A DNA stretch of 60,252 bases from Craspedostauros australis (GCA_030167865.1 JALAGF010006574.1:1-60252), one strand, 5' to 3'; counted from the first letter of the stretch, positions 22,425 through 60,252 are shown. Numbers and translations: made by a program. Notes: generated from the sequence alone by a model not told the origin.

Positions 22425-24612
22425 GCAATACACCAGGATTATGAGCACACGGCAGCATGACAAGACGAGGACAAAGGACATCGTTGCTGATACTCTTCTT
22501 CTTTCTGCGATTACCGATGTATTCTTGTGCACCATACGTAAGCACTTGTCCAATGTAGACCATTGTCATGCCACCATAACACAATGCATGCTCTCGACTG
22601 GTCTTTCATAACAGTTGCGACCTTGTCTCCCTCGCGTAGATGCTCGCGCGACCATGGTGGACACTTCGCGGACTTTCCACGACAGGCCATTCTGCTTGTT
22701 TTCGACCGTGAGGCTCTTCGCGCACCTAATTTCTATAATTTGGCCGTTGGTTCGTACAGCCGTTGAGTTCTGACGAAAACGCGTGAGACTTGTACCGTTA
22801 CAACAACAAGAAAAACAGGGTTGTGCGCTGGCAGAAAAAGACGCGCACCTCAAATCTTTCGGCCAGGAGACAACTCGACTCTCCTCGACTCAGCTGGACT
22901 CAACCCGATTGCATCGCATTGCATCTCATCACACTGTATTCGGCCACTCCTCTTGGACAGCTGCATTCTATAATCACATAATCGCACACAATCGCACACA
23001 ATCGCACACAACCACCAAATCAAGGCAACATCATGGCGAAACTTGGACAATCAACACAGAAGGACGGGCAGAAGTGCACAATGCTCCTGCCGACGATCCT
23101 GCTCGCTGCCATGTTCGTCATTCAACTCCAATCCACCAACTTCACACGCACCATATCCGAAAGCAAGAAGGACACTTCCAACAACTCCTCCGCTCAATCT
23201 GTTCTGAGTTCGGCTACAGTCGTCAAGACGCAAGCGACCCCATGTCGACGACAGCTGGCACCAAAACTCCACAAGTCGCAGTTCGAAGAAGACAAGAACC
23301 TCCTGAATTGGTTCAGCAACCTCTGCGGTGGCACCTACATCGAAATGGGCGCCCTCGACGGCCTTCAGTACAGCAATTCCTACGTCTTCAACACAGGTTT
23401 GGACTGGAAGGGCGTCCTGATCGAGGCTGACCCCATCAGCTACGAGAAAGTGCTGGTGAATCGCCCCAACGAGCTCGCCAGGATCCACGCAGGTGTCTGC
23501 ATGGAAGAGCAGGACTTGCATTGGGTGCAGGTCAAGAACACTCCTGCCGTGTCTGGATTCTTTGAATTCGCCGCGGAACAATTCAAGGCCAAATGGTGGA
23601 ATAAGGAGCTCATCGACAACGCCATTGTCGTGAAATGCCGTCGGTTGGACAAGATTCTGCAGGAGGCTGTGGGCGATTCGTTCCACTTCGACTTCTTCTC
23701 CCTGGATGTCGAGGGTGCCGAGCTGCTGGCGGTGGAGTCGCTCAATTTCGACCAGTACCAATTCGGTGCCATCCTCGTCGAAGCCGACGGAAGGAATGGG
23801 CGCAAGGATCAATCCATCAAGGCCATCCTGGAACGTGCTGGGTACGAATACTTCGGCAAAATCAATCGATCGAACTGGTTCGTCAACAAGAACTTTGATC
23901 GGATCTACAAAGATGTTGTCTACGCCACGAACTAGGGAGCAAGGAAGGACCGGTAGCAACCACAGTAGTATATAACATTACGCAAGATCTATACAATGGA
24001 GTGCGCTGAATCATCTTTACAGTTGCAAACAATCTGCAGGACATGGAGTGGGGCAATCCTTTCTGAAGCACGGCTATTGTTCGAGAGTGCAGAATAGAGC
24101 AGGCTGCTTTACTCTATGTACAAATAATGATAAAATACTGAGAGAATCCACTAACCAGGTCTTTTTTTTAGACCAAAGTTCACTCACCAGGTCGTTTTGG
24201 TGCCTGGCCAATCACAATGGCCGAACTGTTGACAGGCGTGTCCTTGCGACAACGACGAAAATATTAATTTAGCTGCGAAACACCATGAAACCGTATGAAG
24301 ATCAGCAGCATGTTGGTGGCATTTTGTAGTCTATTTTTGAAGGCAAACAATCGCCCACAAAACTCGACAACTGGTGTTATCGTGAGTGCATCGAATGTGA
24401 TCTGCAGGATCATGGGGGAGCAATACATCATGATCCTGAGCGCATGGCAGCATGGCAATACGAGGACAAAGGACATCGTTGCTGATACTCTTCTTCTTTC
24501 TGCGATTACCGATGTATTCTTGTGCACCATACGTATGCACTTGTCCAATGTAGACGATTGTCGTACCACCATAAACCATTGCGTGCTCAACTGGCGTTTC
24601 ATGTCAGCTGCA
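22425..24612. repeat. Dispersed direct repeat, ~190 bp (22425-22620 / 24420-24612), with a 76-bp identical core (22465-22540 / 24460-24535)
   Basis: ACGAGGACAAAGGACATCGTTGCTGATACTCTTC...CACCATACGTA occurs twice and brackets the FkbM gene. Confidence 0.9.
23033..23935 (+). CDS. FkbM-family (Methyltransf_21) methyltransferase with N-terminal membrane anchor
   Basis: GTYIEMGALDG..YSNS, WKGVLIEA and FDFFSLDVEGAEL motifs; hydrophobic anchor LLPTILLAAMFVI. Confidence 0.93.
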   Translation: MAKLGQSTQKDGQKCTMLLPTILLAAMFVIQLQSTNFTRTISESKKDTSNNSSAQSVLSSATVVKTQATPCRRQLAPKLHKSQFEEDKNLLNWFSNLCGGTYIEMGALDGLQYSNSYVFNTGLDWKGVLIEADPISYEKVLVNRPNELARIHAGVCMEEQDLHWVQVKNTPAVSGFFEFAAEQFKAKWWNKELIDNAIVVKCRRLDKILQEAVGDSFHFDFFSLDVEGAELLAVESLNFDQYQFGAILVEADGRNGRKDQSIKAILERAGYEYFGKINRSNWFVNKNFDRIYKDVVYATN

Positions 24613-26919
24613 ATGACTCCTGTAGCTGCAATCCATTATCTTGTCCGCGGCGGACATCGAGATCACGGATCAGCAAGCGTTGATGCTGCAACCTTGCCTG
24701 TTTCACGTACCACCACAATCCGACAAGAGCAACCAGCGCACCGACGATGAGAATGGGGATAGTGTCCACAAGTTCTCGCATAAAATCGCTGTCGTCCGAT
24801 TCATTGTCCAAGTCACAGTCAACGTCAAAGTCAAAGCCAAAATCATCATTCTCAACGCAATGGTTGGTGGCCGCAAAGCGCCGCCATTCCCGAATCACAA
24901 GGTAGATGGCGGTAAATGCCATCAAGATGAAGTCGTAGCTGCCATGCAGCCACCATGCCGGGCGGATGATGCGCCCCGTTTGCATCGTGCGATCCTTCTC
25001 CAAGTCACGACGGCACACGCCGATGGATTGCATCGCGGCGCACAGCGGATGCACCGGCAGCAGCGATCGCAGCACCAGCGTGATGATTTCAACCGACGCG
25101 TCCGGTTTGGAGTAGAGGAAAACGTAGAGGAGGTTCTCGGCACACGCAAAGCCGACAGCCGTGGAGACCATGGCGATGGTGATGGCGGATCCCTTGGAGA
25201 TGTTGCTTTTGCGTTTGCCAACGACTGCGCCTTCGCCGTGACTGGTTGTCGCAGAATCGGCGGAATCCACCATGTCGGGATGTTCGACCATCCAAAAGCA
25301 GAGATACTTGGAGAGCTCTTCCACCAGGGCTGCCACGATGAAGGCATTCAGGAGGGCCTTGAAGACGATTTGGAAAATGATGAAGACAAGAATGTCTGCC
25401 CCAACTCTGCCTCCTCCGCTCCCTGCGTTGCTTGCTACCGAAGCATCCGCGAAGATGAAGAGCGCACCAATCGCTCCTGTCAACAGAACGATGGTGGAGG
25501 TGATGATGGATGCAATGGTCTCGTATGCAAGTGAAATTCCGCTGCAGATGACGAAGCCGGATGCGAAGTACTTAATGACGGCATCCAGCGAGATGTCGAA
25601 GCGGTGGTTGGTCCAGTACACGAAGTACATGATCACAGCTGGTTGCAGGAGCGCGGCAATGAGCTGTGTATTGTCGTAATTCAATGGATGTGATGTGCGG
25701 AACGAGCGGGTGGGTGAGAAGGCGAGTGAGTGAGTGAAGTGGAAGGAGAGGAGCGCCGCTGCACCGACGGCAAGTAGCGCGATTCAGGTCAACTTACGAT
25801 AGGGAATTGCCAAATGGGCATGTAGAGGAATGGCAGAACTGCCAGGACCATGACGATGACGACCAGGATCATCGTCACCTTGATGATGTTGCGAGACAGC
25901 TGAGACAAGGCACCGTAGTGTGCCGACCACGACGAGTCCGCCGAATCTCGCACACGTCGGATCTGCGTGTCGTACTCGGACCAAGGCTGGATGGTGACGT
26001 AGTCGTGTTCCCAACGGGGTTGGCCTTCGCTGCTGCTTTCGGGCAGAGTGATGGCCAAGTGACGGTGCTCCTGTGCGATGGCGCACATTCCGCAGCACAT
26101 GCACCAGGAGTTGCAGCACCCCCCGCAGCACGAGGCCGCGATGAATCTCCAAAGCCTTGTGCAGAAGTCGTACACCTCATCCTCCGAAGACCCCCCACTA
26201 GCATGAGCAGCACTAGGTGGTCCGACAGAGTCCTTCGAAAAGCACGCGCAGCACATGTGCGCTCGGCTGATCTCCATTTGATGTTGGTACAGATAATACT
26301 GCAGATCCCGATTCTCGTGCTCCGGAATAGTCTCGGGGTTTTGGTGTGGATGCTCGCGATAGTACTGCGCCTTGGCCAGTTTCAAGCGGAGGCTGCGGCG
26401 ATCGCCCTGGAACTTGCAAAGGACGACGATCATGCCAAATACGATACCCGCGAAGCAGATGAGTCCCACCCTCTGCGACCTGATGTCGAACTGGGAGTAG
26501 ATGAAACCCACCAGCGCAAGCGCCGTGACCATGGCAATGGCGTGAGGACGTTCCTTCCAGGGCTTGGGCATGGTGCCGTCGAACATGAACTGGTTGCGTT
26601 CCCACAGCCACACCCCGCAGCATGCCATGGCACACGCATCCGTGCGCGAGAAGCGGTGGGATTGGAACATGCCGCAGATGGACGAAGAGAAGATGCCGAG
26701 ATACGATACGTCGTTGGTGTTGCCTGCTGCGTCATAGGTTGTGGCACTTGTAGCCGAATCGCTGTACGCACGCTGGTTGGGGCTCGCATCCCCATCAATG
26801 GCGAGAGTCACCGGAGTGCCAGTCGCCTGAGGCAAGGCCTGAGGCGGATACTTGTTGTTGGTATCCTCGACGTCGGCAGCCGGTGGCTCGAGGTTGGCTG
26901 GCACGTAGCCTCCTTTCAT
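24599..26919 (-). CDS. PLAC8-like domain fused to a PrsW-family intramembrane metalloprotease (~728 aa); exons 26919-25798 and 25663-24599
   Basis: Phase-0 intron 25797-25664 (GTAAGT..ACACAG) joins the two ORFs. Exon 1: CAMACCG.W and CCG.CAIAQEHRHL. Exon 2: AALVEELSKY, GFACAENLLY, HPLCAA, LHGSYD. Confidence 0.85.
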
Positions 26920-27803
26920 CGTGTTGGCTTGTTTGTTCCTTCAACCTTTCTTGATTGTGTTGCTTGTCCAGACTATTTGGATGATGTCGCGTTTTGTGTG
27001 ATGAATCTCAATTTGGGGCAATGAGAGCTGCGGGGATTGGTGTTCTGATCGAAGCCTGTGGTGGCGGCTGTCGCCTCTGCTACAGACCTCCACAAGGACG
27101 GCCCATCGCTTGCCACGCACCACTTCGGCTTCTGTTGGTTGCACGAACCAGCCATTTCAAACACAACTTGATGCCAAGTGATGCTCGTCTGTGCAGAACT
27201 TCACAGTTCTCGTAGCGTTTGATGTCACAAGATCTTTTCGCATCGCGTGTTCGCGTTCGTTTTTGTTGCTGAGTCGATTCAGTCGGTTTGCGCAGGTTGT
27301 CCCAACCGCGTTCTTTGCGGCACCCAGCTGGAATTCAGTCAGGGACACACTATCTCTAAACGTCTCATGTCCCACTTCGATGCTAAAGAAATAGCATCAC
27401 ACAATCCGTTCCGACTCCGACGACTCCGATGGTCTCCTTCTCCTCTGCTTTCCATCAGCGTATCTTTACCTGATCGATCGGATTCAAACCCTCTGGAACT
27501 ATGCTCTTCAGATCCTTTGGACTGCAAACCTTCTCGATTCCTTAGTGTACTACAACACCTACATCATCATGACGGCAATGTCTTGGAGATCCAACCTGTT
27601 TCAATGACAGCAGGGAATCCAACAGCGAATTCTGACAACAACGGCTGCACCCACTTGATTGCAGCTTGAACAGAATGCTGAGTGTTGCGATCTATTCTAT
27701 TATACAATCCTAACGAATATTCTGATGACTATTTTTATCCATCAACTCAATTCCGCCATGCGTCCACTTCTGGAAGACTGCTGTTATGGTATGATATGAT
27801 ATG

Positions 27804-29555
27804 CTATGGTCTGGTACTCCACTCCTCTTGTTCAGCAGCACCATCCGTCTCAATCATTTTGGATGATTTGGTACTCATGGAGCGGGCGAAGTCCACCAAT
27901 GTCACCCGATCCATGCATAAATCCACTTGTGCTGTACCCTCATCCTCATCTACAACCTTGTACAGCTCCACCATGGACATACGACTGTACTCATCATCAA
28001 TACCATCACTCTCTGCTCCCCCACTGCAGAGGACATCAATGTCTCTCATCAGTTGGGGTTGTAGAATCTGCTTGCTGAAACCTGGATGAGTGAACATATC
28101 TTTCTCACATTCAGGTGCCATTCTCATTGCTGCATCCTTCAACACCACGCCGTTGTATTGATGAGCGAATATCAACATATCTATCATGGTGTCTTCTGTG
28201 AGATGCTTGTGGGCCAACTCCACTTCAAGAACAAGCTTGAGTCGCCAGAAGCCGAACTCGTTGGCCACAAGGATCAGCTGTTGCAGATCATCCTGTCCAG
28301 TGAGGATGGGAGTTGGCTGGTGAGAGGCATCTGCATCGTGGTGAGCGTCGGCGGAAGCGCCAACATGAGCGCCGATGTGAGCAGCAGCTTTGTCACGAGT
28401 GCTGTCATCAAGGATATCTCACCTGTGTAGATGTATTGGAGGACGTGTCGGACGTGTTTTGGTTGAAGGTTGGGAAGAGGGACAGTTACTTGCATGGGGC
28501 CGCGCCGTCTTCGGTGCCATCATTCGCGCATTGATTTTGGACTCCAGAGTTGATCAGTGAATGGATGGAACAGTGACCATGAGGACTCTGGAGTTTGCCT
28601 TGATTGCTTGTTGTTGGCTGCCTTGTCCACACAAGAGGATGGTGGCTGTCCTGTTCTCAATTTAAAAGGATCTGAGCCAGTCTTCTCAAATGCTGATGTT
28701 GGTCCTCTTGTGGCTACTGTGTTTGTGTTGATTCTCTTGCTTCTTCCGTTTCAACTGCTGTCCCAACTGTTTTTGTGGTTGTTCATTCTCTTGTTTGTTT
28801 TGTTGTAAGCATTGTTACAGTTGTGGGTGAACTGAAGGCGAAAGTCCTCTAATGAGGGACTCAATACACTCCAGCTTGCCATAGCGGCATGCGAAATGAA
28901 GGGGAGTGTAACCATTGTTGTTATTGCAGTTGATGTTCGCTCCAGCTGATTCGACGAGGTACTCCACACACTCCAGCCGGCCAGAGCGGCATGCCATATG
29001 AAGGGGAGTGTCACTATCGTTGTTGTTGCAGTTGATGTTCGCCTCGCATGATTCGATGAGGTACTTGACACACTCCAGGTGGCTCTTCATGCATGCGCAA
29101 TGAAGGGGAGTGGAACCATGGCTGGTTTCGCAGTTGATGTCTGCCTCACATGATTCGATGAGGTACTTGACACACTCCAGGTGGCCATCGAAGCATGCCT
29201 CATGAAGGGGGGTGGCACTATCGCTGGTTTCGCAGTTGGCATTGGCCCCGCATGATTCGATGAGGTACTTCACACACTCCAGTTGGCCCTCGAGGCATGC
29301 CTCATGAAGGGGAGTGGCACCACAGTAGTTTTTGCAGTTGATGTTCGCCTCGCAAGATTCGATGAGGTACTTCACACACTCCAGGTGGCCCCAGCAGCAT
29401 GCATCATGAAGGGGAGTGAAACCCACCATGTCTGCAATCTTGTTGATATCAACTTGTTTGTTCTGCGCCTTGTTCTGTTTCTTCCATTCCTTCAACACCG
29501 ACAAGTCACCTGCCCTGGCTGCATCAATGAGTTGGTCGTCTGTGATATTCGGCAT
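27804..29555 (-). pseudogene. Ankyrin repeat-coiled coil-BTB gene, copy A (disrupted; ANK part open 28815-29555)
   Basis: Six TPLH ankyrin repeats; in-frame stops at 28815, 28686 and 28662, then frameshifts; BTB/BACK-like remnants HVLQYIYTGEI and ANEFGFWRLKLVLE...LKDAAM. Confidence 0.85.
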
Positions 29556-31764
29556 TTTGAGAGGATGGTCGATTGATGCTGGACGATTGGCGTTGGACGA
29601 TGGACGTTGGACTGGCTGTCGAAGAAGTGTGTAGTCTGAGCTGTCGATGGTAGAGATATCGATGGTGTGTCTTCAATAGCTTGTATTAGTATGAGTACCA
29701 TGCACTGTGTGATGAATATGAGTGGCAATTCGATGTCTGATGTTGATGTGCTCGAGTATGGTGTTGAGTGGTGTAGTCGTATGTTGTTGTCCTGTCCGCA
29801 TGGTCTCCTCCTTCTGTTTTTCTGTGTTTGCCTCCTTCTCTTGATCGCGCCCGTCTGGTTCGTGTGGTTTGGATCCTCCTGTTCGCATGCATGAAGGAAA
29901 CGCACACAGACAACAACACGAAAGAAGCACCACAACAGAGTTCTCTTTTGCGATCTTCGAAAACCCGAATCTTCGACTGATTCGACTACGATCAAGACCA
30001 TCGAAGAAGATCAACGAATGCGAGAGATCATTGATGGTGACACGCCAATGGTTCGAAATGGTCGTTGGGTGTTTCCATTGGTCTGAACGGTGTTGCGGCG
30101 TGGGTCTGCCTCCGACAACTTGACTTCGGTCACAATCAACACCACATCAATTCGAAGCAAACAACGCGGAAGTCTCCGGAGACTGAGAGACAGAGAGACA
30201 GAGAGAGAGAGGGAGCTGCCATCACCACCACCATGTACACCATGACCCACGCTTGCTTGTGTTATGGTGGCATCTGCAAGACCGCTGACGCTTGTCCGCC
30301 TGTCATCACAAGCACCAACTTGAGGTTCGAACCAATGCTTCGAACAACGATGAAGCCACTGATGTGACTGCGTTTGTTGGTTGCCTTTGTTGGTTGCCTT
30401 TGGTGGTCGCGACCCATCTCATTTGGATTTGGCTGGTTGCCATCCCATCGTTTTGCAACCATCACCATCCGCACAGGCAACAAGAGTCCCCAACATCCAA
30501 CCAACACCAAACCAACACCACATTGCGCATTGGGATGGGTTGGCACCTTCAGCAATCAATAGGCGGAGTGATACCGTGACGCCTCCACTGTTCCTGCCGC
30601 ACGGACCACCAACATACAATACCATGCGCATTCTATCAATAGGCATGAGTGCCGCCGTCTTGGCTCGTGACTTCCAGAGCATTGATGCCCAACCGAGCTG
30701 ATTGACAGGAACATCCACCTCATCAACGAAGTTGGGAGCACCACAAAGGAGGATATGTGGGTGTACAGTGCGAATGGGCCATTGATCGCTGGCCACGTGC
30801 TTCGTGTGCCATATGGAACTCTGTGTCAACCATGATCCGCAATACAATACTCGCACTCTGCATGGGGTTGCTCGTTGGTTGGTTGGTTCGTTGGTTCCTT
30901 CTTTTGCTCGTCAAGATCTCTGGATGTTTGGACTGGGCTAGCTCGTCGGTTCTTGTCTTTCCGCCACGCTGGCACTGCTCGCTTCGAAGATTGGAATGGA
31001 TGGTAATCCCAGTATTTGTTGCTTCAACAGTGAATGGTCACTCCTCCTGGGACTTGGCGAGGGTCTCGACTGCAGTTTTGGCACAATGGCAAGAGTGCAA
31101 CTCATGGAGAGATGAGGACAATAGCGCGATACGGGACGGTCGATGGAGACGCACAGCAACCATGCCCCTCGCGGCTTCCCATCATTTCCCTCTGCCTTGT
31201 TCGTCATGTGCTCTTCGTAGATCGCCTCTTCCAGAAACTTGGATCGGCTGGCGTCGGCACTGTCGCTTTCAATCTGCTTGGCAGTGTGACTTGGAGTGGA
31301 GTGTTCTGTGTGTGAATCTGGCTGCACGGCGACGACCGCACAGCTTGTGAAAATGGTGCTGCCATGCATCCTTTGTCTGCGCAACGAACCAACAACGATG
31401 CTGATGGCAGAGTGCGGATGGAACCACAGATGTCCAATCTGCTCGTGAATGACATCAACAACATCCCTGTGTGTATGTACCGCAGAGAGCGGGCCAGACA
31501 AGTCGTAGACAAGGCGGAGGCAGCGTGGGAGCAGTACCCAGCCCTTCAATCTCTTGGAACATCCGGTGCCTTCGTCACAGCATTCTATTGTACAAGTAGA
31601 TACAGTGCATGCGGTACTGTTCCAATCATACAGATTATAGAGCATTACAGTCTATTCGTAGGTGTATTAAATTACAGCGACGTGAGTCTACCACATCTCA
31701 AGCAGTATGATACGAGTACGGAGCGGCCCCTCCATCTCATTCCATCCCATCGTGTCGTGATGCA

Positions 31765-34240
31765 TCACAGGGTGGGAGTGTTGGTACCATTCATCGAGCG
31801 ATCGTTGTACTGAGACGCGCTCTTGCTCCTGACCGCTTTCTTTGGTGCGAGTTGCGGTGGCTTTGTGCCAGACAGCTTCTCATGGTAGACAGCATCCCGA
31901 GTCGACGATCTGCTTCGTCCACGATGATTTGATTGAAGGGCCCCGCGTGATGACGAATATTTGTTGCCATGTTGTTGTTTGCCACGTCGTCCATTGTCAT
32001 CTCTCTCATTGCTGTGCCGCTCGACCCTGTAATTTCGATATCCTCTTGATCTGCTTCGTTGTCGCGCCGATGGTGATCGTTCATGGGAGGACTTCCTTCG
32101 ACAATCTTCGCCCATCTTCGGCACGTGGTGTCGATTGGCTACAGCCACGTTGATTTGGTCTCCGCGGACTTCCTCGGGCGTGCTTTCGGGGAAGGTGAAC
32201 CCTTGCGCCATTGCAAACCAGTACCAGTGGAGTGCGCATTTGAGTTGGTTTCGCGTGAACGTGAGGCTGTGTTCATGTCATCCGAGCTGCCAGCTGTTCG
32301 TTGTCGCCGCGATGATGGCGATGAGTCCATCGATGCTTGCGCAGTTCTTCTGTGGTCGCGATCGGACGGGCTTCAACGACTCCGCGCCGATGGGGAGCGG
32401 CGGCTTCTTTCAGAGGAGGAAGTGTGAATTGCTCCGTCGCGACGATGACGCAATGATGACGAACGCTCCAGACTCTTTGATCATGACGATGTCGCGTGCG
32501 GCTTGCCACTGGCGTGCTGTGCGCTTCTACGCCGATGCCGTGGCGACGGTGATCTCGATGGTAATATCAATGGTGATGACACACCTCTTGTTTTGCTGAA
32601 GTGGTGACGTCGGGGCCCATTGCCAAGCACCTTGGAGATACTTTCCTTGATCGCCTCGCGCAGAGCACCCGTGCTTCGTCCGCGTGAACGTCGTTGCTTT
32701 GAGTCTTCACTTGGGCACAACGAACTGCATGCGGATCTGTTGCGAGAAGGAGTCACCTGGTCCTTCTTGCTCGATTGCAATTCGATTCCCAAACTCAAGG
32801 CTCCAGGACTGGATGGGGCTTGGGGTTGTGGCCGAGACACCTCCGTGGTTGCGGTCGAACTGTTGAAGATTGAGTTTGGATTTGGACTGTGATGATGATG
32901 ATGACGGTGGCGACGATGATGGCGCCTTTGCGGATGCTTTGGTCAAGGCAAGGTCAGCCAATTGCGATGGTCGGGATTCGAGAGATGGTCGTTGCTTCGA
33001 TTTGGGAAGATTGGTCAACGACACTCCACGTAATGATGATCGTTTGGCCTTGAGGATGCTGTCCAACGTCGACCTGCGCTTGTTCAACGACCAAGACTGT
33101 TGTCTCTATTCATGTATGTGGCTGAACGGGGCTGGTGTAGATGCCGCACTCCGACCTCCAGGCGTGACAGGGGCCGCGGAGCTTCTCCCACCATTCGTTA
33201 CGGCAGCACTTGTCGCAACGTCGACGCTGCCATCGTCGTCGTCGTAGAGACTTGGCAGATTGGAGAGTGACTCCAGGCTCTCACTGCGTGACTTCTTCGT
33301 TGTTGCAACTCGAGGTAGAGCCAGCGTGCTGGCTGTACTCATCGCACCTGTTGTGCTGATGTGCCTGGAATGTTGTGTCCATCCTTCGAGAAATCCAAGA
33401 ATTCCAAACTCTTGCTCCTCGATTTGGCGCTGCTGGTCGTTCTGTTGGAATTCGTTGTTGGCCTTGGCCTGCGTCTCTGACTCTGCGCAAGCATCATCTT
33501 GTCTTGGCTGCTCCGTTCGCGGGTCGCGCCGAGTGCTGGGGCTGTGGCGAAGCTGAGTCCACCTGGGGTGTTTGGCACCGGCATCGATTCGTTGTTGTTG
33601 AACTTGCTGGGATCAAGGGAGCTGAATGACATCTCATGAGTTTGCATGTCGAGCATGTCCAGACTCTTCGCACGTGATGGTTTCACAGCCGAAGCTTTCG
33701 CATCTTGTGCTGTACTTCTATTGGCCCTGCTTGGTGTATCTGTGCTGACACTCGCACGACCACCTGATTTTGTAGTTGTGTCGGCCTCTTTGGCGATGCT
33801 GGTGGGCTCGCTCGCCTTCGATTTCGTGTCGGCCTGCTGCGGTTGCTTGGTCTCCGTTTGCTTCTCCGCTATCAGTCTGACACCCTCCTCTTCCAGCAAC
33901 TTCAATCGTCATGATCACATGACCGCACGGGCTGGACGAAGGTTCGAACAGAGTGTCAGGCTGGACGCTTTGCTATGGCAACTCCCAGAGTAGATCATAC
34001 TCATGGGAGGTTCCATACTCATAGTTGTACAACGGGTGGGTCAAGATGCGGAGCAACTGGCGAGCCTTCCCACAGTTCCTCTTGGATGTCGATGACTCAT
34101 CATCTTGTCTGATTGTCTGATTGTTTGTGTTGTTGGTGGTGGTACCAATGTGAAGGGATGCGGCGTCATTGGAGTGGTTGCCATCGTCATCGTCATCGTC
34201 ATCGTCATTGCCGAACAGAGTTGCGTTGCACGAAGACAAC
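31765..34240 (-). pseudogene. Disrupted gene for a long Ser/Arg-rich disordered protein
   Basis: Consecutive minus-strand ORFs of similar composition joined across stops (33106, 32481, 32373) and frameshifts; recurring SRxKSL[ED] motif. Ends are approximate. Confidence 0.55.
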
Positions 34241-35729
34241 GCATTGGTGATGTTGGTTGTGAGTGCGTGTGTGCGTCACTGGTTGAATGAACAACGGATG
34301 ACAGACAGACAAGTACTCAACAAACGCGCCAAAAATTCTTGACACCACCCGAAACAACGAATCTTCGATTTTGCACATGATCCATCAAACAACACCAACA
34401 CAACAAGAGAGAGAGAAAGATGAAATGGCATGACTATGTTTGCATTGATGGAGGTATCAGCCAACACTGAGACGTTGTCCGTCAAGCAACAAAGCAATGA
34501 AGTAATCAAGCAAGCGGCGGCTGCGCAAAATATGGTACGCCAACCAGAATCAACGAAGGCGGCCATGGCAAGAGACGATGATGATGCCGATGATGATGAT
34601 GATGATGAATGACGAGCAGTGATGAACAGCGATCTCCAACGTGCCACATCACTCAGAAACATCAGAAAGGAAGATATCACACCAACTGCTCCGGAGTAGA
34701 GAAGATCTTGGGACATAGTCAATCGCAGCGCCAACAACAGAACCAACAGCCATGGCAAGACATGTCATGGCCCATGGTGTGGTCTGGATTCAAGTCATCA
34801 GCAGCCGCGCCCACCCACATAAACGTCCAATGCGCTGTCGGCAACGGAGATTCAGCACATGTTGGATGGGTGCATCTGTGAGATCGGACTCAGCGACTTC
34901 TTCCGACACCAACAGAGCCTGTTGTTCGGAGGTGTTCCTCAGTCCCCACTACACGTACCACAACCAGCCACGCCTGTTCATACCGATGCTCGAAGCGATA
35001 CGTTGCCACCACAAACCGCAAACGGTGAGACAGAGGCACTGTCTCGCCGGATCCACCATTACTGAAATCGTGTGCAATGACATCGGCAACTTCTCCCATG
35101 GCTCGTCATCTTTGTCGGCCATACCTATCGAAAACCATGCAGCTGTTGGCATGCGCTTGTGCCCTGCGCGACATCATGCACGAACTGCAGCACCACTACC
35201 ACCAACAAGCTGACAGCCGTAGCACATCCCGCTCCGTCACGTTGGATTCGATTCCTACAAGCCATGCATGACGCCAACAGGGTCCACCATCGTTTCCCAC
35301 GCACCTCCTTCCACACCCACGAAACCAACGAACGCGGAAACCAAATGATCGGCAATGACGACTATGACGATGACAGCGGTGGCTGAACCATCTTCTTCAT
35401 GTCGCATTGGCCAATGACGCTGCACACCAACGTGCCTTACGCCAACCAGGATCATCTGCAATTCATGCACAGAAGATTATGCGCATCTCGCGGCCCAACC
35501 AAACCGTGCTGCGAACGATACGGTAGTGCATGGAGCAGCATGCTGTGCACATCACCAAAGGCGACGGTGAAGGAATGCCGGACGCACCATTGAATGAATG
35601 GATTACGAATTGCTCCAGCTCCTTTCACATCGTTACTATCCTAATGACTATCCTGACGACTATTTTTATCCGTCGACTCAATTCTGTCATGCGTCCACTT
35701 GTGGAAGATTTCTGTTATGATTTGGTATG

Positions 35730-37364
35730 GTCTGACACTTCACTCCTCTTCCTCGGCAGCGCCGTCCATTTCAATTACTTCGGATCAATTGGTACTCATA
35801 GAGCTGGTTCTCATGGAACGGACGAGGTCCACCAATGTTGCCCGATCCATGTATGAATTCACTTGTGCCGTACCCTCATCCTGATCCGTAACCTTGTACA
35901 GCTCCACCATGGACAAGTGGCTGTACTCACCATCAACTCCATCACTCTCCGCTCCCCCACTGCAAAGCACCTTGATCTCTGTCATCAGTTGCCGGCGTGG
36001 ACTCAGCTTGCTGAAATCTGGATGAGTGAACATATCATTCTCATTGCTGCATCCTTCAACACCACGCCGTTGTGTTGATGGGTGAATAGCAATGCGTCTA
36101 GCATGTTTTCCTCCGTGAGATGCTTGCGGGTCAACTCCGCTTCAAGAACAAGCTTGAGTCGCCAGAAGCCGAACTCGTTGGCCACAAGGATCAGCTGTTG
36201 CAGATCGTGCCGTCTAGTGAGGATGGGAGTTGGCTGGTGAGAGGCATCTGCATCGTGGTGAGCGCCGACATGAGCGCCGACATCAGCAGCAGCATTGTCA
36301 CGAGCGCTGTCATTGAAGGATATCTCACCTGTGTAGATGCATTGGAGGAAGTATCGGACGTGTTTTGGTTGAAGGTTGGGAAGAGGGATGGTTGTTTGGA
36401 TGGGGGCCACGCCGTCTTGGGTGCCATCATTCGCCTGCTGATGTTAGATTCCTTTGTCAATCAGTGTCTCAATGGATGGGACGGCGATGATGAGGGCTTC
36501 AGCGTTTGTCTTGATTGGTTGTTGTTGGTTGCCTTGTCCACACAAGAAGATGGTGTCTGCCCTGTTCTCGGTTTAGAAGGATCTGAACCGGTCTTCTCCA
36601 ATGCTGATGTTGGTCCTCTTGTGGCTACTAGGTTTGTGTTCAATCTCTTGCTCCTTTCGCTTCAACTGCTGTCTCAACTGTTCTTGTGGCTGCTTATTCT
36701 CTTGCTCGTTTTGTTGTAAGCGTTGTTGCAGTTGTGGGTGAGTTGAAGGCGAAAGTCCTCTAATGAGGGACTCCATACACTCCAGCTTGCCATTGCGGCA
36801 GGCCCAATGAAGGGGAGTGGAACCATCGTTGTTTTGGCAGTTGATGTCCGCCTCACATGATTTCATGAGGTACTCCACACACTCCAGGTGGTCGAACATG
36901 CATGCGTAACGAAGGGGAGTGAAACCAAAGTTGTTTTTGCAATTGATGTTTGCCTCACCTGATTCGATGAGGTACTTCATACACTCCAGGTGGTCTCTGC
37001 AGCATGCATCATGAAGGGGAGTGTCACCATTGTTGTTTTTGTAGTTGATGTTCGCCTCACATGATTCGATGAGGTACTTCACACACTCCAGCTGGCTGTT
37101 GCGACATGCCCAATGGAGGGGTGTGTGACCATCGATGTCTTGGCAGTTGATGTCCACCTCACATGATTTGATGAGGTACTTCACGCACTCCAGCTGGCCG
37201 CTGTGACATGCCAAATGAAGGGGAGTGATACGTCCCCTGCCTGTAACCATGTTGACATCAACTCCTTCATTCTGCGTCTTGTTCTGCTTCTTCCATTTCT
37301 TCAACACCGACAAGTCGCCTCTGTTGGCAGCATCAAGGAGTTGTTCGTTCGTAACATTCGGCAT
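35730..37364 (-). pseudogene. Ankyrin repeat-coiled coil-BTB gene, copy B (disrupted; ANK+CC open 36573-37364)
   Basis: Five TPLH repeats; in-frame TAA at 36573 and 36444; BTB RADTIFLCG...FLQCIYTGEI; 19-bp deletion relative to copy A near 36035. Confidence 0.85.
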
Positions 37365-38024
37365 GTTGAGAGGATGGTTGATGGTTGGTGGTCTTTTGGC
37401 GTTGGATTGGCTGTCGAGGAAGTGTGTGGTCTGAGCTATCTACTATGAGGCAGAGATATCGATGGTGTGTCTTCAATAGCTTGTAGTAGTACGCGTACCA
37501 TGCACTGTGTGATGAATGTGAGAGGCAATTCGATGTCTGTTGTTGATGTGCTCGAGTATGGGGTTGAGTGGTGTGTGTTGTTGTCTGTGTTTGCCTCCTC
37601 TTGATCGTCCTCTGGTTTGGATCCTTCTGTTCCCACCAGCCGCGGTTCTCGTCGTCTTCGACGCCACAAGGTGTTCTCGTTCGTTTCTGTTGCTGGGTCG
37701 ATTTAGTCGGTTTTCGTAGCATGTCGCAATAGCGTTCTTTGCGGCAGCTCAAACATCGAACTCCACCATCTCTTCTCCACTCGATGCAGGAAGATGACAA
37801 TCCTCGCACGACGCCATTGGAACATGAAGATGATGTCGCATTTGAACTATACTTGTACTGTTATATTATGTGATACTTTTGAATCACCACATATTCCATC
37901 AGCAACAGAAACTCTCTCGGTCTCAATGCAATTGAGGCAGCGCATTCCGATGCGGCTTCTTGCCACTGGGATAACTTTCTCTCTCTCTCTCTCCTTCCAC
38001 CTCACCATCCGTCTATGTATCCGT

Positions 38025-38669
38025 CTACGCTCTCGTCATCGTGTGCCGCTCGGGCGCGTTGATACGCTCGCGCAGCTTGATTTCGTGATGCGTCTGCGCC
38101 GTCATGCACCCGCTGACGCAGCAGAAGACAACATCGGCAAGGATATTGCACACTTGCGCGACCTGATCGTCGCCCTCGCATTCGGTGCAACGTGCGACGC
38201 AGCTGAGACATAAGGCGAAGATCATGAGGCAATTCGTGCAGCGAATGAGGCGGATATCGTCGTTGTCGAGCCCCAGACCGTACTCATTGCGCATGATGAT
38301 GGACGTCGCGCTGACGGCGGGTCCCGTGCAGCAGAATGCCTCGAGGCACATGCAGCAATGGGGGCAGGTGCTTTCGCACATGTTGCCGGGCTGCAGGCAG
38401 CAGCAGCCGCCGTAATAGCCCTGGCAGCATATGTAATGGGACCACCCGGAACCTGGATGGACGTGATTCAAGGCCCTGTGGCGCATGTAGATCTGCACGG
38501 GGCAGAGGCACATCATGCTCCCCAGCCAGCAGCATGGAGCGCGGCATGGAGCCTGGCACATCGTGATGTCGAACTTGTTCTCATTGTTGGCGAACTGAGC
38601 GTAGCTGCTGCCGTATTTCCCGTTCATTTCGCTCTGGGACAGCGGCGTGGTGGGGCAGAGGAGGCACAT
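38025..38669 (-). CDS. Cys-rich PLAC8-family protein
   Basis: Tandem PLAC8-like units: C.CPVQIYMR..AL, YICCQGY, CLEAFCC.G.AVSAT...R.EYGL, GCMTAQ...EI. Confidence 0.85.
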   Translation of the reverse strand: MCLLCPTTPLSQSEMNGKYGSSYAQFANNENKFDITMCQAPCRAPCCWLGSMMCLCPVQIYMRHRALNHVHPGSGWSHYICCQGYYGGCCCLQPGNMCESTCPHCCMCLEAFCCTGPAVSATSIIMRNEYGLGLDNDDIRLIRCTNCLMIFALCLSCVARCTECEGDDQVAQVCNILADVVFCCVSGCMTAQTHHEIKLRERINAPERHTMTRA

Positions 38670-39342
38670 GATGGCGGTTGTTTACGAGGAGGTTGGAGCG
38701 CAGGGAGTACAAGGAGAGAGGGTTGGTCTGGACTTGGGATTGATCCTGGTGCAAGTGATATGTTGTTGATGATGGTGCTGCTGATGATGTTGTGGAAATC
38801 TTTGCGAATGGCTTTGCGGATGGTATTGTTGATGATGCTTCGCAGTTGTGTGGGCGTTTGGCACGATTGTGCAGGCACAGATGTGGATCTTGCGTTGTGT
38901 TTGTCGCGAGTGCAAGGAGAAACGCGAAGGAAACATGGCAGCAAAACGAACCGTACGCCTCTCCCGCCAACAACAGGCAGCGCCAGAATGTGATGGATTT
39001 CGTCGGCGAAGATATCCTTGTCTCGTGAATGTCCTCCTCGTGTCACAGAGGGAACGGCTTCGGTTGGACTTGTCACCAACAACCATTTCTCGACTCATTA
39101 ACAATCAAAGAAGGACACACTACTCATCACTGCAATGTTGCCTTGTGCGCAACGTTTACGACGAGACCGGTCAACCAAGCAGAGGAGCGTCCACATTTAC
39201 TTTGCGGATTGATCTCGACTCCATGCTATTCTGTTATATGCTGGGAGTGACAACAATGCGGCGCCATCCAGTACCTTTGTTGAAACGCATAAACGCGCAG
39301 ACGAAATCTCAGCTGCCGCCATACCGCCGTCCCTGTATCATT

Positions 39343-40308
39343 CTATGAGTATTCCGAAGGGACTCCACTGCCGATCGTGCGCATGTATGTTGATCGCAGC
39401 AGATCTTCCACTAGATCATCGAGGTCCTCGTCAATAGCGACAGCAAGCGGAGTGAATCCTTCATCCGTGTCTGGGATATGGAGACCGATTTTGCGGCTTC
39501 CTTTGTCACCCAAATCGCTGTGCCCAAGCAGGCAATCGACGGCTTCCGTGTTGCCATGAAAGCACGCACAATGAAGAGGCGTGTATCCATCTCCATTTTT
39601 AATGTCGAGATCAATGTTCGTGTTGTCATGCGTGCAGCAGAAGTGGAGGAGACATTCGACCGCTGCCGCGGACGTGTTCTCACAGGCAATATGCAGCGGT
39701 GTGCGGCCGAAAATGTCCGGCATGTTGATGTCGAGATCGATGCTGTCATCAATGTAGCTTTCTTCGAGAAGGCAATTCACCACGTCCGCGGAATCGTCCT
39801 CGCAAGCGCAGTGCAGTGGAGTTAAGCCGTACCTGGTTTGGATATTGACGTTGATGCGGATGTCGTCGTTCATACGAACGGACTCCAGCAGGCACTTCAC
39901 CATTTGTTTTCGGCCAGTCTGGCAAGCGTAATGCAGCGGTGCGTACCCTTCCCCGTCTTGGACGTTCACGTTGATGCTGATGCCGTCAGTTGCACCGCCG
40001 AATTGAAGCAGGCGCTGCATCACATCCTCCTTGCCACGACTGCAGGCATAATGCAGCGGCGTCTTGTGGCGCATACTTCGAACGTTGAGATCGAGGTTGA
40101 TGTTATTGTTGGCGTGGCTTGATCGAAGGAAGCACGCGACAACATCTGCGCTGCCCTTAGCACAGGCAACATGGAGCGGGGTTTCGCCAGCTGAGTTTTG
40201 TGCCAAGATGTCCGCGTCTTCGCCCTCTTCTATCAAGCGACGGACCCTTGTCAGATCACTTTCTCTGCACGCGGAGTGCAGCGGCGTGTCACCTTTGATG
40301 ACCGCCAT
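39343..40308 (-). CDS. Ankyrin repeat protein (about 8 repeats with long loops)
   Basis: Repeated G.TPLH.AC motifs throughout the 321-aa ORF. Confidence 0.9.
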   Translation of the reverse strand: MAVIKGDTPLHSACRESDLTRVRRLIEEGEDADILAQNSAGETPLHVACAKGSADVVACFLRSSHANNNINLDLNVRSMRHKTPLHYACSRGKEDVMQRLLQFGGATDGISINVNVQDGEGYAPLHYACQTGRKQMVKCLLESVRMNDDIRINVNIQTRYGLTPLHCACEDDSADVVNCLLEESYIDDSIDLDINMPDIFGRTPLHIACENTSAAAVECLLHFCCTHDNTNIDLDIKNGDGYTPLHCACFHGNTEAVDCLLGHSDLGDKGSRKIGLHIPDTDEGFTPLAVAIDEDLDDLVEDLLRSTYMRTIGSGVPSEYS

Positions 40309-42910
40309 GCTGATGAGTGCTGTCTAACGCAGTGACCTGCGATGTGAAAAGTGGAATGATGGATGAGCACAATGATGGCAGTCACAGCATCATCCGAAAG
40401 ATCCGGCAACTATAATTCCGTGCTTTCGCGATGGGCTGAAAGGAACAGGCTGACAACCGCCGAAAAGATCGTACAAGGTGCACTCCACCAATCCTAACAG
40501 GTTTACCATCACACAAGCGTCACTCACTGCTTCCTTGCTCTCCTGACTTGGCTACTTGTCTCATAAGCGATGCAATGAAGATGTATGATTTTGTACTTGT
40601 TTGGATTCGCGACGCTCTTTGGAGTTTTGTGTTGTTGTGTCGTTGTGTTGTTCTGTGTTTAGGTCATTGCGTGACCGAGACGTTGTTGGGAGATACGGTA
40701 TATTATTGTTCATTCTTCAATTAGGATGAATCAGACAACGACCAGAAATCGGAACAGTTTCTCGATCTGTGATGTCAGCCCTGACCTGCACTGTTCTGGA
40801 ATCCACTAAATTGCGATCTTCCAAAGAGGATGTTTCACACCACCAGAGGCAGCGACAACGATCAATTAATTGAAGGTGCCCTGTCTGAGATCTTGTGGCA
40901 GAAAGGAGTCAGACACGCATGTTACCTGGAGGGATTTATTGGTATACACTACATGCTGAAATGCCCTCAGCAACCAATACACTCCTGCAGAAGAGAGATG
41001 CTTCTCATCACAAAGCAACAAGAATGCCAACAGTTGCAGGTGGAAAGTCCTCAGTGTGCCGATCGTTTCATTTCCAAGTTTGGCAAGCGCTTTGGCATGG
41101 GGAACAGGATCGAACAGTGTAAACCACAATGGTGTATGGTATTAGAATTATACTTATTCCACACAGCTCCCTCTCTCTCTTGTGTTCTAGCTTGGTGGTG
41201 CAGTTGAGTTGATAGGACAAAGACAATAATTGTTGGAAATATGGGGTAGTAGTACTGTAGTCTAATGCTTATTAAACTGTACTGCTGTAGAACTGTGAGA
41301 ACAACATCTTCATTTCTTGCTTCTTCGAATCGATTGCCCATGATGATAGCAGTAGCATCCTGTTGTTGCTCCTGTATTCATCATTACAGATCTCCTCCAT
41401 TGTTCACATCTCATCATGTATCTCAGGCACATTTCACCATGCTCATCCATGATGATTCCCTTCTACACTCCTGCAGTACATGCGTGCTGATGTCGAGTTC
41501 CACTCTCTTCCGATCTGACATCAATCACCCATTCAGTGCACTCTTTCATGTTGTTCACTCACTCTTCTCACATGCTGACCAATGATAACACTTGGGTCAG
41601 GACATGATGTTCTGGCATGATCGATACGATCGTTCGACGATGTTCCAGTCCGCGCTTTATTCTCCTTCGTGGTTCTCCCTCATTCATGGGATCAAGTTCT
41701 GAGTTCCGAGCGACTCAATATTGTTAGCGCTTTCCCATAGATGTTTGGTCTGTCGGGATGTACATGCGTGTGTAGGTCAAGGTGTACGTGTATATGTGCA
41801 TCGTTCACCCGTTATTCTCTTATACATGTTCAGACGGTATAACTACATTCGTGTCAATAGTATGCTGTGATTTGTCAGAATCACAGTGGAAATGGAACAC
41901 GCAAAAATGAGCAGAATTCCTGGAGGAAATTTGCAATCAACGATTTCTGAGAATCAGGAATATCGTCCGTCCATCCATCAATGGAAAACGTATGGTATCG
42001 AGCGAAGCTCGATGCACCTCCCAACTGAACCTCAGATGACAATATCATCTGACAGACCATCGCATCATTGATGGAATGTGGAATCAGAAGGACCGTGGAA
42101 CCAACAGCTGACGTTGACAAGATGTCAAGGTGTCACCACGTCGACATCTGTCTCAACATCAGATCACGAAGGCGAAGATTCGATGACCAAGGGACATCGA
42201 GATCGTAAGTATGCAAGGAGGATTGCAGTGTGGGAGTAATGGCGACTACTCATGGAGTAATGGGCCAGTGGAGCACGAAACAATGGAGTATGCAATGCAT
42301 GCGGAGTACATGTCGAGTACGGAATATTGCGTGGAGTGAACATGCAACATTGAGAGAGAGAGAGAGAGAGAGAGAGAGTAAGAGCAACAGCAAGAGAGGA
42401 TCTCGCGCACCGACTCATAGTCGGACCAACGAGAGAGATGCGCCGAGAGCATTGGGCAAGAGAACAAGAGACACCAAGAGGATCGGAGTGTCTACGGAAT
42501 GAAATAGCAAACAGAATACCAAACAACAACACCATCTACCACGATCGCAAGGTATCCGTCCACGGAACTTGCCAACATTATTCTGAGTTAGCTAGTGGTC
42601 TTCGTAGGATGAAGAAACGATGTCACACAGCTTGATAGGGCCCTGCACTGATTTACTTGGTTCAGTGCTTGAGGGCAGACGTTGATTTTTGCTCCTTGCT
42701 CTCTTCACACGTAGTCACACTGCAGCATAGATCATGACAATTCAGTTGAAATGGTCATACAGCAATGGCTGTGGTTGGAGTTGACTCTCGGATTCCTTTG
42801 CTTGAGTTGAAGCAAGCTGGATATGCGTGCCATGACTACGACAATGGCGTAGTAGTCATTTGCATGGAGAGAATCGAGGTATGTTGTAGTGACCGTTTTT
42901 GAGGAGCATA

Positions 42911-43508: not shown

Positions 43509-45485
43509 TAGTTCCCAAAGTAAAGCCGAGTCAGATCGGTCATGGCATGAGTTAGGACTGATTCGTGAATGGAAGAGAGAAAGGGGAGAAAAGATGTGGT
43601 GGTCGATCAGGTCGGAAGATTTCGCGCCAAAACGAGAATTTCTCCCATCGAATGAAGACATCGTGTTCGGTGATAGTCTGTCCCTAATTGAATCTCAACT
43701 ACATCCATAATTAATTGAAAAGAGTCGATTTCCTCAGTGCTTCTCTGGGTGCATCACACCCAGAATGAATTGAAAAAGAGGAGATTTTTGCCCGGGCAAA
43801 CAACAAAGAAGTGCGTATTTTAATAGAGCCCAAACGTAATGGCTGTTGTCTTGTTGGCTGTTCTTTAGCTGTAGGCAGAGGCTTGACTGGCAAGCGATCC
43901 GGACGAGAGTCTTCTGTTCCACAAGTAGTCAATTGAGAATACTGGTAGATGGTGAAGAAACGTGCGGATTATGAGATTAGTGCAATTATTCTTGTTCATG
44001 TGACACCCTGTGTGGGTTGCCCTGGAAAAGGGTCGTAGGGTTTGCGTAGCCCAAGTACCACAGGAGGGGGCCCTTTTGTTGGGTTGCTGTCAGAAANNNN
44101 NNNNNNNNNNNNNNNNNNNNNAGTACCAGGGGAAAGTTTCCCTCCATCAAGTTGGAAGCTGGGCGAAGGTCATCTTGCGTGTATTCCCACGTGGAACTGT
44201 ACCGTGGATCCAGCAGTCTTGTATCGGCATCAAGTTTTCGGTGGGGAGGGGTTCTGATGACACAGTCATTGGGACCCTTTTTCCACGGGTCCTGGATTTC
44301 AAAGAGTTTCTTCGAAGACTTGTGCCTGCTCCAACCATGGTTATGTCCGAAACGTGGTTCAGATCGATTCGTGGGAAAACGAGTCATGTGTTCCAGGAAA
44401 TCCTTCCTTAGCCTAACTGCTAGTTTAGCTCTATTATATTTATCGTATCATATGACATGGTGGGTATCGTGTCCTACACTATGGTGTAATATATACCACG
44501 CAAATGGAAGTGTCGTTCCCGTCGCCACATGATAGCATTAAATCTGAACCTTTCTTCGCATCCCCACCCAGGAATGTTCAGGTTCGTCGGCAGCTGAGGA
44601 AGCAAAATACAGGTTCGTCGGCAGCTGGGGAAGCCATGATACCACACGACCCAAGCGTCGAAGGTCAGCCGATTCAGCAAGGAACACACGCACGAGCTAT
44701 ACAAAGAGGTACCACATCCACAATTGGATGGCATTGGACTTTCTCATGCTGCTGGAGAGCTTGCGGTAGAATTCTACCCTTTCACATCGCCAACTCGGAG
44801 GAGGCAACCTTCGATGCGGAGAATCAAAGTGGAGCCTTCCAAGCAGCAAACCCGAGTTACAACAGAGAGGTGGTCAACCACCAAGCAAACATCCGTAACA
44901 AGGTTTGCAATGCGATGCGCACCAGTATTCGACTCTGATACGACCACAACTGGCGCAGGAGGACGGTGGAAGCCTTCAGCCATTTACGGCATTGCATGAA
45001 CGCACGTCGCGGTGTTCATCGCTTGTCGGCCCGCCCCGCCCCTCGAGAAATCACTTATCTTCCTCCCAAACCGATCCTATCAGTCTTATAACACCAATCG
45101 ACCACCAGATTACAAGACATCAAATCACAAGACAACAACCAACATCCGACAGTCAACAGCCGGAATCCAAAAACTATCGCAAGGTGAGCACACGTCAATC
45201 CGAGGCTGAAGCGACGACGAGCTATCCAAAGACACCATGCATCCTCACCCTGCTTTCCCATAGCAATACCAGACTCGCACTAGTCGACATCTTGCTGTCG
45301 AACCCTCCACCTCTGCCAGCCTTCATTAACTCACGCTTTTCCTTTCCATATCGTCGTTCCTTTCGCATGCACACCTCGTCGAATCGTCGCAACGCCCTGC
45401 TGATTGCACAGTCGATCTGTGCTCTATTCGGATTCAACGCGAACTTGGCGCACGCACAATTGATCCAACCGCTCTCGTTACGGCA

Positions 45486-60046: not shown

Positions 60047-60252
60047 NNNNNNNNNNNNNNNNNNNGCCCAAATACGCTTTACGAGAAGCCGTTTTTTTTT
60101 CAAACCCTTTTTCGCTGGCCATCTCGACTCACGACATGACTCATGTCTTACATCGATAATAATCGCTACAGTTGCGGTAATTGAACAAACAATAATCATG
60201 ATTCGTGCTCCACCCTCCTTGTTGTGTTACACCCTTGCCAGGATTTTGGTGT

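Follow-up and report, generated by a model that had tools for sequence, protein, structure and literature searches.

MATH-BTB adaptors have expanded in individual lineages under positive selection on the substrate-binding domain, and the poxvirus ankyrin/F-box proteins are cullin-ligase receptors that carry ankyrin arrays. As for the plant proteins of the NPR1/BOP type, we know of no tandem DNA-level repeats or hypervariable sites in them. In fungal NLRs, the ankyrin repeats are under positive selection at their concave face, according to the passages of Dyrka et al. (2014; PMC4986451) that deal with these repeats, and those passages call repeats highly internally conserved when, over 100 residues or more, their amino-acid identity is above 85%. 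Here, we consider a pair of ankyrin-repeat loci, copies A and B, on the minus strand of a 60,252-nucleotide stretch of DNA from the raphid diatom Craspedostauros australis (GCA_030167865.1, JALAGF010006574.1:1-60252); this whole stretch is called the window below. Probably, the two copies, duplicated in tandem, are relics of a lineage-specific birth-and-death family of ankyrin-BTB (ANK-BTB) adaptors, in which the ankyrin array would be the specificity module and its contact residues would be under diversifying selection.

The two copies are each about 2.1 kb long and are separated by about 7.9 kb. The whole duplicated unit of copy A (27700-29775) comprises a 5' flank, an N-cap, six ankyrin units, a linker, a BTB/BACK-like part and a tail, and it was delimited by alignment with copy B, by direct-repeat families D1-D4, D6-D8 and D10 and by tblastn of P0001, a database protein described below; the unit of copy B (35634-37575) was delimited by direct repeats, by alignment with copy A and by the same tblastn. 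Outside the arrays the copies are 81-94% identical, and no further copy was found within the window, either by tblastn of P0001 or by a scan for the scaffold word.

Tandem Repeats Finder, run on the window, reports a period-102 array at 28852-29423 (5.6 copies, 81% matches) and another at 36763-37227 (4.6 copies, 79% matches). Read in frame on the minus strand, they resolve into six units in copy A (A1-A6, 29429-28818) and five in copy B (B1-B5, 37238-36729), each of exactly 34 codons. The repeat finder and the in-frame reading thus bear out the 11 units of about 102 bp, six and five, that an earlier note on this sequence had described; the unit number is indeed unequal between the paralogues, and it also varies among relatives in the family, the differences in question being between paralogues or between nearly identical database entries. 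Pfam ankyrin profiles match the two open frames at E values of 1e-67 and 5e-74, with scores above the cut-offs for Ank_4 (222.6 bits) and Ank (203.8 bits, six stretches) in copy A and for Ank_2 (245.4 bits) and Ank (174.3 bits, five stretches) in copy B.

The scaffold of the unit is rich in cysteine (ACxxGxLECVKYLIESCEANINC), and a 29-nt scaffold word occurs nine times with three or fewer mismatches, as against no occurrence in 100 shuffles. The residues that vary on this scaffold are D, E, E, C, M and F after PLH in copy A and L, W, D, Y and W in copy B; after AC they are CW, LE, FD, MK, RS and RY in copy A and HS, RN, CR, MF and RN in copy B. Every one of these residues had been listed in the earlier note and is reproduced in the minus-strand translation. 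We refer to unit positions 1, 2, 4, 9, 12 and 13 as the hypervariable (HV) codons and to the other 28 codons as the scaffold. Among the internal units, the scaffold codons are 81-95% identical in DNA (mean 86%), so that the scaffold is conserved, but to call it nearly invariant at the DNA level, as had been done, was an overstatement. Over their whole length the internal units have a DNA identity of 78% and a protein identity of 63.5% (protein range 50-79%, 36 pairs). The latter mean lies well short of the fungal threshold given in the above passages of PMC4986451, and the likening of these units to the highly conserved repeats of fungal receptors does not hold in that respect.

At six positions in each unit, whose codons are close to saturation, replacement change is far faster than silent change, as in recognition systems. 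The mean pairwise replacement differences at positions 1, 2, 4, 9, 12 and 13 are 1.2-1.8 per codon, and several fourfold-degenerate scaffold sites are identical across all of the units. For the nine internal units, the mean pN at the HV codons is 0.64 and the mean pS at the scaffold codons is 0.21, and pN at the HV codons exceeds pS in all 36 internal unit pairs. When copy A is compared with copy B, the HV codons have a pN of 0.541 and a dN of 0.96, as against a dS of 0.205 in the scaffold and a dS of 0.236 and dN of 0.145 in the non-ankyrin parts; replacement divergence at the six codons is therefore four to six times the silent divergence. DNA identity between the copies is 52% at the HV codons and 81-88% in each other coding part, and the HV differences fall on 15, 20 and 8 of the 30 codons at codon positions 1, 2 and 3, respectively. 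The terminal pair A6/B5, with 95% scaffold identity, is clearly orthologous, and within it five of the 18 HV bases differ, all of them replacements, as against four of the 84 scaffold bases (Fisher p = 0.008). Neither the pairwise nor the orthologue comparison depends on any tree.

Site models point in the same direction. Model M2a was compared with M1a in a custom GY94-type code on 9 x 34 codons; on the all-site tree, 2dlnL is 37.4 (p = 8e-9) with an omega of 16.5 in 15% of the sites, and on a scaffold-only tree, under two frequency models, 2dlnL is 56.2 and 64.7 with an omega of 14-25 in 15-17% of the sites. On the latter tree, exactly sites 1, 2, 4, 9, 12 and 13 have a posterior above 0.9. 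When the units of five database fragments described below are added, which makes 19 units from seven gene copies, the six positions have an entropy of 2.75-3.26 bits and no other position exceeds 1.8 bits. The per-codon comparison that the earlier note had proposed thus supports diversification at the variable codons, with dN far above dS at the six positions. As in the fungal repeats, the signal of positive selection falls on a few positions of the concave surface, estimated here with custom code from few sequences that may have recombined. That the change at these codons has an adaptive value is what we infer from these comparisons.

The variability itself is a different matter. A third ankyrin gene of the window (39343-40323, minus strand), with at least seven units, the TPLHxAC motif and irregular unit lengths, served as an internal control for ordinary ankyrin variability. 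It has no DNA-level tandem repeat, and the same positions are variable in it. Position-specific variability alone is therefore generic, because an ordinary gene varies at the same positions, and the unusual feature of the arrays is the rate relative to silent sites, not the variability. One might then suppose that there has been no adaptive diversification at all, that the six positions are merely unconstrained ankyrin surface and that the scaffold looks young because of gene conversion or a recent burst. The variation at the same positions in the control gene and in the distant relatives P0011 and P0018 would agree with this, as would the star-like tree of the units described below and the fact that recombination can inflate site-model tests. 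However, neutral sites cannot outpace adjacent silent sites four to six times, and conversion would have homogenised the HV codons as well, because the invariant codons are interleaved with them within 3-10 bases. Furthermore, the HV codons have diverged to the identity given above while the non-coding flanks of the two copies remain 83-94% identical, the HV differences lie mainly at codon positions 1 and 2, and the A6/B5 orthologues display the excess without any assumption about shuffling. We therefore give this explanation very little credence and retain diversifying selection as the probable one.

The relationship between the individual units is more difficult to explain. The positional pairs A1/B1 to A4/B4 have a mean scaffold identity of 86.3%, and so do the 32 non-positional internal pairs (86.3%). 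A tree of the units built from the scaffold alone is star-like, its bootstrap values being 15-57, and does not group any unit of copy A with its counterpart of the same rank in copy B; positional pairing between the copies is confined to the terminal units. Because the internal units show no positional homology, they were either exchanged or born in a burst around the time of the gene duplication, and two arrays cannot separate these histories. The repeat shuffling proposed in the earlier note is thus in keeping with internal units that do not cluster by position, but a burst near the duplication fits two arrays equally well.

Two observations concern the duplication rather than the units. The silent divergence between A and B is uneven (A 28100-28650, B 36040-36560); the BTB part has a dS of 0.126, the N-cap 0.30, and the linker and the tail about 0.40. 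Such a pattern may be due to gene conversion from one copy to the other, which would also bear on a stop codon that they share (see below). In addition, a 76-nt piece just 3' of copy A (27247-27322) is 86% identical to one just 5' of copy B (37671-37746), at a spacing of 10424, and this pair may be left over from an older tandem arrangement or a third copy.

Neither copy is intact, as judged against P0001 and against the other copy. The open frame of copy A (28815-29555, 246 codons) consists of the N-cap (29555-29430) and units A1-A6 and ends at a TAA (28815-28817) where copy B reads CAA (Q). Two more in-frame stops follow at 28662-28688, namely a TGA (28686-28688) that is aligned with GGA in copy B and with G in P0001, and a TAA (28662-28664) that is the same as the TAA at 36573-36575 in copy B, after the residues RSF, where P0001 has Q. 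The remnant beyond them (27804-28661) holds the end of the linker, the BTB, the BACK-like helices and the acidic tail, and in it three gaps against copy B (4, 1 and 1 nt, near 28559, 28499 and 28409) throw the BTB core out of frame. The open frame of copy B (36573-37364, 263 codons) consists of the N-cap, units B1-B5 and a linker rich in Q, K and E, and it ends at the TAA that is shared with copy A. Its BTB/BACK-like part and tail (35785-36572) contain a second in-frame TAA (36444-36446; CAA in copy A, Q in P0001), a 19-nt frameshifting deletion at about 36036 and two TGA codons in the tail. Because both copies have in-frame stops and frameshifts relative to an intact close relative and to each other, they are pseudogenes, or at best genes trimmed to ankyrin-only frames of 246 and 263 codons. 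Consequently, the locus in the window is not itself a working receptor of the kind that the earlier note had proposed for the family.

Two ways of rescuing the reading frames were tried and rejected. An intron is suggested by a perfect-looking GTGAGA donor after the residues YTG in both copies, together with the indels downstream; however, P0001 is colinear and translates straight through this stretch. A reading of TAA as a glutamine codon is suggested by the fact that, of the four distinct TAA positions, three stand opposite CAA in the other copy and the shared one stands opposite Q in P0001. It was rejected because the window has many stop-free frames of 699-1049 codons under the standard code, and also because no route to a stop is commoner than CAA to TAA; TAA was translated as X solely to read through copy B.

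All of the lesions, six in copy A and at least four in copy B, are located 3' of the arrays, and none lies within the 640-740 nt of cap and units. By a rough estimate, the probability of such a placement by chance is about 0.03 for copy A and about 0.08 for copy B, which is suggestive, but the placement could be due to chance. It raises the question of whether the loci are alive and encode trimmed ankyrin-only proteins of 246 and 263 residues, for example decoys or competitors of full-length adaptors, with the BTB part alone in decay. Apart from the position of the stops and frameshifting indels, the 5' flank (29649-29774 in copy A and 37449-37574 in copy B, direct-repeat family D6), which is the best-conserved duplicated segment with 94% identity between the copies, would favor such an arrangement. 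On the other hand, when the copies are compared the scaffold has an omega of 0.54 and the N-cap one of 0.68, which amounts to only weak constraint, neither frame has a close database protein match, and the contigs of a public run described below carry the letter of a paralogue at sites private to A or B, although contigs can drop rare variants. It is thus very unlikely that the frames are maintained as ankyrin-only genes, and we continue to regard the copies as pseudogenes of a larger family.

The evidence for such a family comes from database proteins. The closest of them, P0001, is a UniRef entry of 366 aa from C. australis, named a BTB domain-containing protein, that is 76-77% identical to the window copies. 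It is colinear with both copies and uninterrupted, reading through the places where they are broken, and it has one ankyrin unit followed by an intact BTB and tail. Four distinct N-terminal fragments in EukProt (P0123, P0126, P0138 and P0168) are labelled MMETSP1442 Craspedostauros, and we take MMETSP to be a transcriptome project. Together with P0001 there are at least five different intact N-terminal fragments, each beginning at an initiator methionine and having one to three units before the contig ends; for example, P0123 has at least three units, the third cut short, P0126 has two and P0001 has one. A sister subfamily, represented by P0018 (C. australis) and P0011, has four or five units, a BTB and a hydrophobic C-terminal tail. 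The two proteins differ by a gap of 34 residues, that is, one unit, within the arrays, and their sequences after the array are nearly identical. As a side observation, both end in a hydrophobic stretch followed by basic residues, which by eye resembles a tail anchor, and the window copies and a further database protein, P0124, have an acidic tail instead. Scans of metagenomes gave 192 pattern matches for P0001 and 30 for an alignment, none of which was confirmed as a relative.

A public run, X1, whose kind was merely guessed as RNA and which contained 0.13 of the sampled words, gives a similar picture. Its contigs match the neighboring genes at 25001-25663 and 37825-38792 with no differences and at 39219-40336 with one, and because these matches are essentially free of errors, X1 comes from the same or a nearly identical organism. 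Over the ANK-BTB parts there are instead many differing contigs, in 1968 pieces, with 280, 502, 738 and 448 of them at 99+, 95-99, 90-95 and below 90% likeness, respectively; four of the 30 bins have no cover (26135-27268 and 40877-42000). Among the differences listed, all of the contigs that cover sites private to copy A (28730, 27879 and 27916) or copy B (37042) carry the letter of the paralogue. The X1 contigs thus represent a family with many sequence variants and say nothing firm about the expression of A or B. As regards the intact and expressed copies that the earlier note had asked for, there are intact N-terminal fragments in transcriptome-labelled records, and P0001 has an intact BTB, but none of these proteins combines a multi-unit array with an intact BTB. 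None of the three findings that the earlier note had named as fatal to its proposal was obtained, these being an omega of 1 or less at the variable sites, strict clustering of the units by position and the lack of any intact expressed member.

The C-terminal module is divergent. In the window fragments, the Pfam BTB profile (PF00651, gathering score 20.5 bits) scores 24.4 bits in copy A (28274-28495, profile positions 52-106) and 20.3 bits in copy B, which is borderline; P0018 (24.0 bits) and P0011 (25.1 bits) are both above the cut-off. A phmmer search with P0124 among 1.84 billion representatives found 117 of them at E <= 1e-3 and 19 at E <= 1e-10. Fourteen relatives were examined, namely the 13 best that are longer than 110 aa plus P0260 (8e-10), with P0018 and the short P0249, P0252, P0255 and P0259 set aside. 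Seven of these 14 have ankyrin repeats and a BTB, five have a MATH domain and two have neither, and 13 of the 14 pass the Pfam BTB cut-off, with 22.3-66.2 bits. An AF2 model of P0124 has a pLDDT of 79 and a pTM of 0.72, and in a Foldseek search of the PDB with this model SPOP BTB/BACK chains take all of the first ten ranks, ahead of KEAP1, KBTBD and NPR1. Pfam gave no MATH match in the window copies, P0001, P0011 or P0018, and no NACHT or NB-ARC match in either copy or in these three proteins. By homology and predicted fold, the module appears to be a divergent relative of the SPOP-type BTB/BACK of MATH-BTB adaptors, with the ankyrin array in place of MATH. The BTB of the earlier note is supported, in that the end of the gene appears to be a BTB/BACK module of SPOP-like type with homology to the one in MATH-BTB proteins, broken in the window copies. 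Because the relatives of the BTB module carry ankyrin repeats or MATH in front, a role as a cullin-3 adaptor can reasonably be inferred by homology.

Several points weigh against the reading of the copies as relics of a selected adaptor family. The BTB scores of P0001 (20.0 bits) and P0124 (19.5 bits) are just below the cut-off, and Pfam BACK_BPM_SPOP reaches 19.1-26.1 bits, below its cut-off of 27.4 bits. P0124, on which the fold search was based, is an ankyrin-free fragment without the first part of the BTB, and the Foldseek scores are marginal (best E 1.1e-3, TMq 0.46-0.51). Among the database proteins returned, none is more than 83% identical to copy B, and no transcript of the subfamily was seen to join a multi-unit array to an intact BTB, P0001 having a single unit; transcript assemblies can collapse repeats. 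As for the selection, the six sites were chosen after inspection of the data, the site-model test used custom code with just 9 x 34 codons and assumed one tree, and such tests are inflated when units recombine, as they are likely to have done here. Finally, the TAA after RSF is common to both copies, with A/B differences on its flanks, and it could be ancestral, parallel or converted. If it were older than the duplication, A and B would have diverged only after both were dead, and their HV differences could not be put down to selection. Outside the array the overall omega is 0.61, which speaks against a death as early as that, without settling it.

An intact member of the family would have an N-cap, a variable number of 34-residue units, a linker rich in Q, K and E, a divergent SPOP-type BTB with BACK-like helices and an acidic tail. 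Its concave ankyrin face would bind a target protein, the BTB/BACK would dimerise and presumably dock on cullin-3, and the bound target would then be ubiquitinated. Gene duplication, the gain and loss of whole 102-bp units and fast replacement at the six contact positions would produce paralogues with different specificities, and the birth-and-death turnover would leave pseudogenes like A and B behind.

What such adaptors would be used for is less clear. To our knowledge, almost nothing is known of the intracellular recognition of viruses, parasites, bacteria or mating partners by diatoms. With a docking module for a ubiquitin ligase that stays constant, a binding domain built of modules and contact residues that change fast, the family would be a concrete and testable candidate for such recognition; the window locus, being a pair of relics, is itself of limited direct value. 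In an innate defence, the variable adaptors would detect non-self proteins, whether of viruses, parasites or bacteria, and pass them to cullin-3 for ubiquitination. In favor of this, the signature is that of recognition genes, in that the contact positions have an omega well above 1, the unit number changes and birth-and-death turnover leaves pseudogenes, and the same window has the 989-codon leucine-rich-repeat frame mentioned below. The concave-face signature is also the one described for fungal NLR ankyrin repeats in the passages of PMC4986451 cited above. However, a NOD or any other signalling domain is absent, the window copies are themselves dead, and the signature fits gamete recognition or intragenomic conflict too. 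In the benthic diatom Seminavis robusta, BTB/POZ families have been tied to sexual reproduction and to amino-acid diversification; the part of that paper concerned (PMC7335047) places these reproduction-biased families among the diversifying genes and does not mention ankyrin. Defence as such is thus an unlikely choice, and the role may lie in defence, reproduction or elsewhere, a reproductive or other role fitting equally well. In its most ambitious form, the idea would be that diatoms have a germline repertoire of natural "DARPin degraders", ANK-BTB arrays diversified by unit gain and loss, exchange between paralogues and selection at six residues, which recognise fast-evolving foreign proteins of viruses or parasites for destruction by way of cullin-3. 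Decayed tandem copies such as A and B might then also supply variant units to working genes by exchange. All of this we consider a decidedly long shot.

The rest of the window contains further long frames with Pfam matches, all on the minus strand and uninterrupted under the standard code: the leucine-rich-repeat protein of 989 codons (5701-8670), an ABC1 atypical kinase (15180-17279), a DUF6824 protein (17977-19932) and a PrsW-like protease (24599-25783). A direct repeat of 169 nt (22425-22593 and 24420-24588) is 91% identical at a spacing of 1995. Between copies A and B, the spacer at 30104-32371 draws many X1 contigs, and because all of them differ from the window there at many sites (e.g., 30579, 31005-31013 and 31323), it contains another multi-copy element; Pfam matches none of its frames at 30938-31645, 31765-32211 and 30757-31350. 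The window also has 95 N in several runs (2268, 2630-2679, 44097-44121 and 60047-60065), which are presumably assembly gaps, and none of these is in or near the arrays or their genes.

A full-text literature search found, among the matches listed, no description of a hypervariable ANK-BTB family in diatoms, and the passages of an Ectocarpus subulatus preprint go no further than a mention of expanded ankyrin families. Designed ankyrin repeat proteins (DARPins) have a similar consensus-like scaffold, in which variation is concentrated in the beta-turn (positions 1, 2 and 4) and where helix 1 ends (positions 12 and 13). In a HMMER alignment of B1-B4 with the DARPin 6mol_A, these five positions, and position 33, fall where the modules of the DARPin differ, and position 9, which follows the histidine and is hypervariable here, falls on a constant leucine. 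The view of the earlier note, that the variable sites are largely the positions randomised in DARPins, is accordingly supported for five of the six and not for position 9. The units of the window arrays have one extra residue after helix 2 (34 residues as against 33), and the family is natural, has a cysteine-rich scaffold and is fused to a BTB.

Among the cullin-RING ligase receptors, ASB9 and ASB11, which join ankyrin repeats to a SOCS box, and FEM1C also use an ankyrin array as the substrate-binding part. Chains of these proteins are among the PDB sequence matches, although they matched the ankyrin query 28815-29555 alone, which has no tail. In these receptors a SOCS box, VHL-box or F-box docks on CUL5, CUL2 or CUL1, in contrast to the BTB here. 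The plant NPR1/BOP proteins have both domain types, but in the reverse order, with the BTB first, and the NPR1 chains at ranks 43-46 of the fold search are weak matches (E 0.15-0.19, rmsd 17-19 A).

Two other close systems are the MATH-BTB (SPOP/BPM) adaptors and the fungal NLRs. The former share a homologous BTB/BACK-like module, the arrangement in which a recognition domain that varies stands N-terminal to a BTB that does not, and fast evolution that is confined to the recognition domain; the differences are that the recognition domain here is an ankyrin array of variable length instead of MATH and that the BTB has a low-complexity insert of about 40 residues. The ankyrin, TPR and WD repeats of the fungal NLRs, as far as the passages of PMC4986451 describe them, share the tandem similarity at the DNA level, the variable number of units, the few selected concave positions and the absence of positional homology, but the partner domain here is a BTB, with no NACHT or NB-ARC, and the organism is a diatom and not a fungus. 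The ANK-BTB family thus joins two principles that were already known, fast recognition domains on BTB adaptors and hypervariable sites in repeats with a conserved scaffold, and it would carry the second of these, familiar from fungal NLR repeats and MATH-BTB expansions, to a stramenopile and to a ubiquitin-ligase adaptor.

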